Origin: a virus
Taxonomy: Duplodnaviria > Heunggongvirae > Uroviricota > Caudoviricetes
Strand: one strand, 5' to 3'
DNA length: 39,245 nt
Virus record (IMG/VR): IMGVR_UViG_2558860161_000002
Shown here: in pieces, positions 38,439 to 39,245 of the stretch
Layout of the letters: each line of letters begins with the position of its first letter
Numbering within the stretch: position 1 is the stretch's first letter
Position numbers and translations under genes: made by a program
Notes under the pieces: model-generated
What the model was told of the DNA's origin: nothing
The model's input: the letters and a program-made list of their open reading frames with translations, nothing else
Database searches by the model: none

Positions 38439-38938
38439 CATCAGCCTTTTCTTTAAAGACATATTATCTTTGTATCATTTCTGATAGTTAACATTACAAG
38501 ATATAAGTAATGGACGCACTCCCAATTAGTCTATTTAAATCGCCACGAGTTTAACTGACAACCCATGATCAATTATGAATTGCAACTATTTCTGTAGTCA
38601 CTTTTGTGGGGACAGTCCACAAAACTGCCAACTTCCGCTTCTTGCTCTTAGCGGACATTAGCATAGGCTATTTACCATAACGCCTCATTACGCGCACCGC
38701 CCAGACTGACTCAGCGCGTTTCTGGCATATCCCCGGTAAAACAAGTAACAAACCACCCGAAAATGAACACCAGAAACGCGACTTAAGAATCTACCCTATG
38801 AATGGATATGCACTCAACCGAATCGATCTTGGTTTCAATCTTTTTTATCGGGATCAGGCTTCTTTTTAGGTAACTTCGGGGGCTTAACTTGCTGATGACT
38901 TTGCGTTCGGCGCGTAAGCCAGGGATGGTCAGCTTTAG

Positions 38939-39245
38939 GGAAGGTGCGAATAAGCAGGTCATTTCTTCCCAAGCTGACTCGCTGATTAAAATTTCGCGGA
39001 TCTGGGCCGATTTTTTTCCCGCAAACACATCGAATCAGCCTATTTAGGCTATTTTTTCCACCATTTCTGGCGTTATTTCCGGTTTTTACTGAGATCTCTC
39101 CCACTGACGTATCATTTGGTCCACCCGAAACAGGTTGGCCAGGGTGAATAACATCGCCAGTTGGTTATCGTTTTTCAGCAGCCCCCTGTATCTGGCTTTC
39201 ACGAAGCCGAACTGCCGCTTGATGATGCGAAACGGGTGCTCCACC
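38939..39245 (-). mobile_element. IS5-family element, terminal about 307 bp (inverted repeat ggaaggtgcgaataag at 38939; transposase 3' end on the minus strand); continues beyond the right window edge
   Basis: minus-strand translation of 39086..39245 gives ...[52 protein letters not shown], the IS5 transposase C-terminus as recalled. Confidence 0.8.

Follow-up and report, generated by a model that had tools for sequence, protein, structure and literature searches.

An ISKpn26 end at a YTAR target within ISEsa1, downstream of flxA in a Qin-like lambdoid prophage

ISKpn26 has been described as a 1,196 bp element of the IS5 family that generated a 4-bp duplication, CTAG, on insertion in acrR (PMC8023600), and the duplications made by IS5 follow the motif YTAR, as found from 220 reconstructed transpositions (PMC5009759). 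The copy of ISKpn26 used here as the reference, from E. coli ECONIH5 (NZ_CP026202.1, 1545437-1546632; L002 1501-2696), is 1196 bp long, has the 16-bp repeats GGAAGGTGCGAATAAG (L002 1501-1516) and CTTGTTCGCACCTTCC (L002 2681-2696) at its ends, and carries one transposase gene of 326 aa (L002 1648-2628), on the strand that corresponds to the minus strand of the window, that is, of the whole 39,245-bp stretch of DNA that we analyzed. It lies between truncated pdeL and truncated betT (L002 1496-2701), with the flanks TTAG and CTAA and no direct repeat, an arrangement that an IS-mediated deletion, or recombination between two copies, seems to have produced. Another copy, also annotated as ISKpn26 family, interrupts lomR in the Rac prophage of K-12, where it has its own 4-bp duplication, CAAG; we take this copy to be the one known as IS5Y. 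Canonical IS5 (K-12 insH) shares with ISKpn26 the family, the inverted repeat, the gene layout and the YTAR preference; the two full elements are 91.4% identical at the nucleotide level and their transposases about 98% identical (319/327 aligned positions, stop included).

The right-hand end of the window holds one end of an element of this kind, with the following features:

38939-39245, minus strand: first 307 bp of ISKpn26, cut by the window edge (from identity to ISKpn26 copies)
38939-38954, plus strand: inverted repeat (16 bp) that closes ISKpn26 on the side downstream of its transposase gene (exact, unique in the window)
39086-39245, minus strand: 3' end of the ISKpn26 transposase gene, last 52 codons and the stop at 39086-39088 (from protein identity and family matches)

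The repeat GGAAGGTGCGAATAAG occurs once, at 38939-38954, and has no second copy in the window, for which 0.03 matches would be expected by chance with up to two mismatches allowed; the pattern of IS5/ISKpn26-type 16-bp repeats, GGAAGGTGCGAA(T/C)AAG, is matched exactly at the boundary of the element, of which one end is visible. The minus-strand ORF at 39086-39244 (52 codons, open to the window edge) matches the C-terminal ends of Pfam DDE_Tnp_1 (E = 2.5e-5) and NCBIfam transpos_IS5_4 (NF033581; E = 3e-10), and the catalytic DDE residues are encoded beyond the window edge. The transposase gene is therefore on the minus strand, with the downstream repeat of the element turned toward flxA. An earlier note on this DNA had proposed an IS5-type repeat starting at 38939 right behind TTAG, a transposase C-terminus read on the minus strand and an element of the IS5 family, and all of this holds; comparison with reference elements further narrows the family to a specific element. 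The 307 bp are identical (307/307) to many copies on chromosomes and plasmids of E. coli that carry the annotation 'IS5-like element ISKpn26 family transposase'. The ECONIH5 copy is also alike in the 16-bp repeat, the transposase C-terminus and the adjoining YTAR tetranucleotide, and differs in its insertion site and in that the window shows one end of the element. The K-12 lomR copy, likewise within a defective lambdoid prophage, is 99.7% identical over the 307 bp (one SNP) and over the whole 1196 bp, but sits in another prophage and another target. In contrast, canonical K-12 IS5 is only 85.4% identical over the same region. Moreover, the 52 residues encoded in the window are identical to the C-terminus of the ECONIH5 transposase and differ from IS5 InsH at three positions, having the ISKpn26-type R, V and Q where InsH has K, A and H. 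The common 16-bp repeat and the near-identity of the transposases would make canonical IS5 a natural candidate, but given the nucleotide identities (85.4% against 100%) and the three residues its probability is practically negligible, and we dropped it. On these identities the element is ISKpn26, an IS5Y-like variant, rather than canonical IS5, and the assignment to the IS5 family stands.

The insertion point was located by comparison with unoccupied sites, and bears on these features:

38935-38938, no strand: TTAG target tetranucleotide (YTAR), predicted left copy of the 4-bp duplication (from the empty-site comparison)
38630-38938, minus strand: terminal 309 bp of ISEsa1 (IS1202/ISNCY family), the target of ISKpn26 (from comparison with plasmid copies)
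38835-38938, minus strand: 3' 104 nt of ydfW, that is, the last 34 codons and the stop of the ISEsa1 transposase gene (identical to K-12, L001 3436-3539)

K-12 and many other strains match the stretch 38400-38939 with 100% identity in their flxA-ydfW interval, and in all of them the match ends at 38939. In both K-12 and the near-identical KMi029 the site is empty and reads ...CAGCTTTAG/GTTTAAC, the slash marking the insertion point (for K-12, in a longer reading, ...GGTCAGCTTTAG/GTTTAACATAG). The base that follows TTAG in the empty site, G, is also the first base of the IS, a one-base ambiguity that is settled by the known ends of the element. Since the empty sites read TTAG/G, the insertion is at a YTAR target, within the annotated ydfW, and its exact position is shown by this alignment of occupied with empty sites. 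The reading of TTAG as a YTAR target, already made from the letters of the window, thus agrees with both the empty site and the motif documented for IS5 (PMC5009759).

In K-12, ydfW is annotated as a gene of 49 aa on the minus strand (L001 3436-3585); its 3' 104 nt are retained in the window and its 5' 46 nt are expected beyond ISKpn26. It is presumably the gene referred to as 'intK', an integrase remnant of K-12 Qin. Several observations lead to a different view of its nature. The 446-aa ISEsa1 transposase ends in 49 residues that are the same as the whole of YdfW. Plasmids of Salmonella carry the 440 bp that adjoin the junction on the left with 100% identity, and plasmids of Enterobacter with 99.8% identity; there, this DNA underlies an intact gene annotated as 'IS1202-like element ISEsa1 family transposase'. 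ISEsa1 itself is a 1620-bp unit (L011 3631-5250 on an IncI plasmid; L014 401-2020 on a Klebsiella plasmid, by ncrY) that has the same ends in unrelated contexts, with the IncI backbones resuming directly after it, and that is 99.7-100% identical between Qin-like prophages and Salmonella and Klebsiella plasmids. Its boundaries are defined by comparative breakpoints only; neither terminal inverted repeats nor a target duplication were recognized at them. While intact on plasmids of Salmonella, Klebsiella and Enterobacter, ISEsa1 is represented in the window by its terminal 309 bp (no mismatch to L011, 3/310 to L014), where ISKpn26 interrupts it; in K-12 by its first 390 bp (L001 3231-3620, in the flxA-ydfX interval); and in KMi029 by a full-length copy of 1621 bp with a one-base frameshift. 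YdfW had no family match in Pfam or NCBIfam, and the profiles of both collections detected no tyrosine-integrase signature in ydfW or in its parent gene. The fragment of the transposase gene from KMi029 matches the ISNCY transposase family NF033594 (4e-92) and, weakly and under the Pfam cut-offs, the integrase-core domains rve and rve_3; the 'integrase' label, which looks like a misnomer, may come from this slight similarity, which involves the catalytic part of the ISEsa1 DDE transposase. A three-frame scan of the gap between ydfW and the transposase was blocked by stop codons.

We therefore rejected ydfW as a phage integrase remnant, as it has no integrase match in Pfam or NCBIfam and its protein recurs unchanged as the C-terminal part of the ISEsa1 transposase. 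By that identity, the interrupted reading frame is shown to be the tail of the ISEsa1 transposase gene, and it follows that the insertion of ISKpn26 is one IS nested in another: ISKpn26 lies 309 bp inside ISEsa1, at codon 412 or 413 of the 446 codons of the transposase gene. Thus, the expectation in the earlier note that an integrase remnant after flxA was disrupted is right in that the gene following flxA is interrupted, and wrong as to what that gene is. Likewise, of the 480 bp that were said to lack a convincing ORF between the flxA terminator and the IS, about 200 bp are indeed spacer, and the rest is the end of ISEsa1, including the 3' part of ydfW. The interrupted transposase gene was probably dead before ISKpn26 arrived.

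The DNA next to ISEsa1 is also found outside prophages. The block at 36945-38939 (relE-relB-ydfV-flxA and the ISEsa1 end) is 99.95% identical to a segment of pSA20064858.1, an IncI-gamma/K1 plasmid of Salmonella Brandenburg, and 99.4% identical to one of an Enterobacter asburiae IncF plasmid; there, its neighbours are an intact ISEsa1 and the hok locus of the plasmid itself. As the block is common to prophages and plasmids, a Qin-type toxin-antitoxin module travels with ISEsa1 between the two.

On the flxA side of the junction, and across it, three further features were noted:

38066-38398, plus strand: flxA, the last intact gene before the IS (110-aa ORF; annotated there in K-12 and KMi029)
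38413-38431, plus strand: likely flxA terminator, a hairpin GTGGCCC-TCATC-GGGCCAC followed by TTTT (read from the sequence)
38835-39104, minus strand: 89-aa read-out ORF with a GTG start at 39104, inside the IS (from the list of ORFs)

The hairpin was not flagged at 38413-38431 by a simple terminator scan, because its tail has only four T, and the spacer of about 200 bp separates it from the end of ISEsa1. The 89-aa ORF happens to share its frame with the final 34 ydfW codons. At other copies of the element, ORFs from this IS-internal start are annotated as 'hypothetical protein' (L002 1487-1666 and L007 2418-2666), with different tails; the 89-aa ORF had no match in Pfam, and an exact-protein look-up found no called gene on record. 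It is probably not a functional gene, and the fusion is probably accidental. IS5-type elements can activate neighbouring promoters. We set aside a regulatory effect of this kind, as reading away from the IS end there is only the ydfW tail and then flxA, the nearest intact gene, which converges on the IS end. The insertion is probably phenotypically neutral, since the ISEsa1 gene that it interrupts is a pseudogene in relatives, with a frameshift even in the closest one, KMi029, and since no leftward-reading gene adjoins the IS end. It is rather improbable that the ISKpn26 end marks a strain-specific rearrangement that removed or relocated the early region of this otherwise nearly complete prophage (dicA/dicC, dicB, exonuclease, integrase), or that its outward end drives a hybrid transcript or protein, made of 55 IS residues and the 34-residue, lysine/proline-rich tail of the ISEsa1 transposase.

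Over the 8680 bp that lead to the junction, 2 SNPs separate the window from KMi029, its closest relative, in which the site is unoccupied. From this, and from the absence of mutations in the 307 bp of the element, we infer that the transposition was recent and strain-specific. The same observations bear on whether the window could hold a dead, truncated fragment of the IS, a solo end. Only 307 bp are visible, as such a fragment would have it, but these are 100% identical to many full-length copies, the transposase frame is intact up to the window edge, and an event so recent that the site is empty in a relative 2 SNPs away in 8.7 kb leaves a solo end very improbable. The occupied site itself was not met elsewhere: 5,426 complete E. 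coli genomes gave no junction-spanning match (0 places at a coverage of at least 80%); exact scans found neither the left junction, in viral, genome and metagenome contigs, nor the predicted right one, in contigs from genomes and metagenomes, a negative that says little because the left junction was absent from these too; exact-protein look-up of two junction-spanning ORFs gave no match; and a junction-spanning similarity search of phage and plasmid collections gave none either. The one plasmid match with a coverage of 82% (H120) is not the junction, as it is made of two separate pieces about 1.2 kb apart. ISKpn26-type ends as such are common: 2,857 of the 5,426 E. coli genomes have them, and so do at least 5,000 plasmid records, the majority from Klebsiella and Escherichia. 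A plasmid-borne donor is plausible.

Taken together, we consider it likely, with a probability of about 0.85, that, in a Qin-like lambdoid prophage, a complete ISKpn26 transposed into the ISEsa1 resident just downstream of flxA, at a TTAG 309 bp into that element. By homology with the family, the DDE transposase would bind the 16-bp ends and make a 4-bp staggered cut at the YTAR target, the repair of which would produce the duplication of TTAG. To the right of the window there should then be some 890 bp more of ISKpn26, a second TTAG and the remaining ISEsa1, giving the layout ISEsa1(1-309)-ISKpn26(1196 bp)-TTAG-ISEsa1(310-1621). A simple insertion thus predicts that ISKpn26 ends in ...CTTGTTCGCACCTTCC, followed by TTAGGTTTAACATAG from the remaining ISEsa1 (also given as ...GGAACTTGTTCGCACCTTCC followed by TTAGGTTTAACATAGTATTTTGAGCG, again from the remaining ISEsa1). 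The junction could also be one side of an IS-mediated rearrangement, by deletion or inversion between ISKpn26/IS5 copies or by an adjacent deletion, in which case the right flank would not be the remainder of ISEsa1 and ydfW and the TTAG duplication would be absent. There are precedents close by: an IS1-flanked inversion in the same window (95-2940), the ECONIH5 copy of ISKpn26 with its non-matching flanks between truncated genes, and the IS5 of strain B379, located further to the right in this prophage, with which recombination could occur in some lineages. Yet, as a primary insertion would have it, the inverted repeat is intact and the left flank stops right beside it, exactly at a YTAR tetranucleotide; nothing within the window indicates a loss of DNA, and simple insertions are by far the commoner event, making up 758 of 857 IS-related events in a published survey (PMC5009759). 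A rearrangement is, in our judgement, unlikely, and the simple insertion of a complete ISKpn26 is the preferred reading.

The prophage that carries the insertion is Qin-like and lambdoid, and is far more complete than the Qin of K-12: the region 3709-29492 has a full lambda-like set of tail, head, portal and terminase genes, which K-12 Qin lacks. The near-identical KMi029 has a frameshift in its portal gene and a stop codon within gpG. Other insertion sequences have also acted on it. Positions 1-95 are the last 95 bp of an IS1, so that both ends of the window lie in insertion sequences; they would resemble contig breaks at repeats, were it not that two complete IS1 copies are resolved internally. 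The segment 95-2940 (the 5' part of pinQ, ydfK, ynfT and ydfJ') is inverted relative to the K-12 order and is bounded by oppositely oriented IS1 copies (1-95 and 2941-3709), with the same 9 bp of pinQ (L004 26763-26771) found inside the left copy of IS1 and outside the right copy. Such an arrangement points to an insertion of IS1 in pinQ followed by an IS1-mediated inversion. A third IS1, complete, is found at 29492-30260, with a flanking duplication of about 9 bp (L005 20484-20493); as its position is inside cspI (L005 20340-20552), this cold-shock gene is interrupted in the strain of the window. In KMi029, the IS1 site in cspI is empty. In E. coli B379, a canonical IS5, oriented like the ISKpn26 of the window, lies elsewhere in the Qin-like prophage, on the right of ydfC (L010 43809-44789); it is an independent insertion of an IS5-family element in this prophage. 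With an IS element cut by either end of the window and IS1-mediated changes within it, the gene order at the window edges is not safely taken as the native order of the prophage.

The feature described here is of an ordinary and already known kind: a well-known IS at a new site, which in this case is within another IS. Its biological weight is small, as ISKpn26 is abundant in the chromosomes and plasmids of Enterobacteriaceae and the target is an IS that was already decaying. The junction, being absent from the 5,426 complete E. coli genomes, is usable as a strain marker. Moreover, the comparison corrects an annotation in the Qin prophage, in that ydfW is the tail of an ISEsa1 transposase gene.
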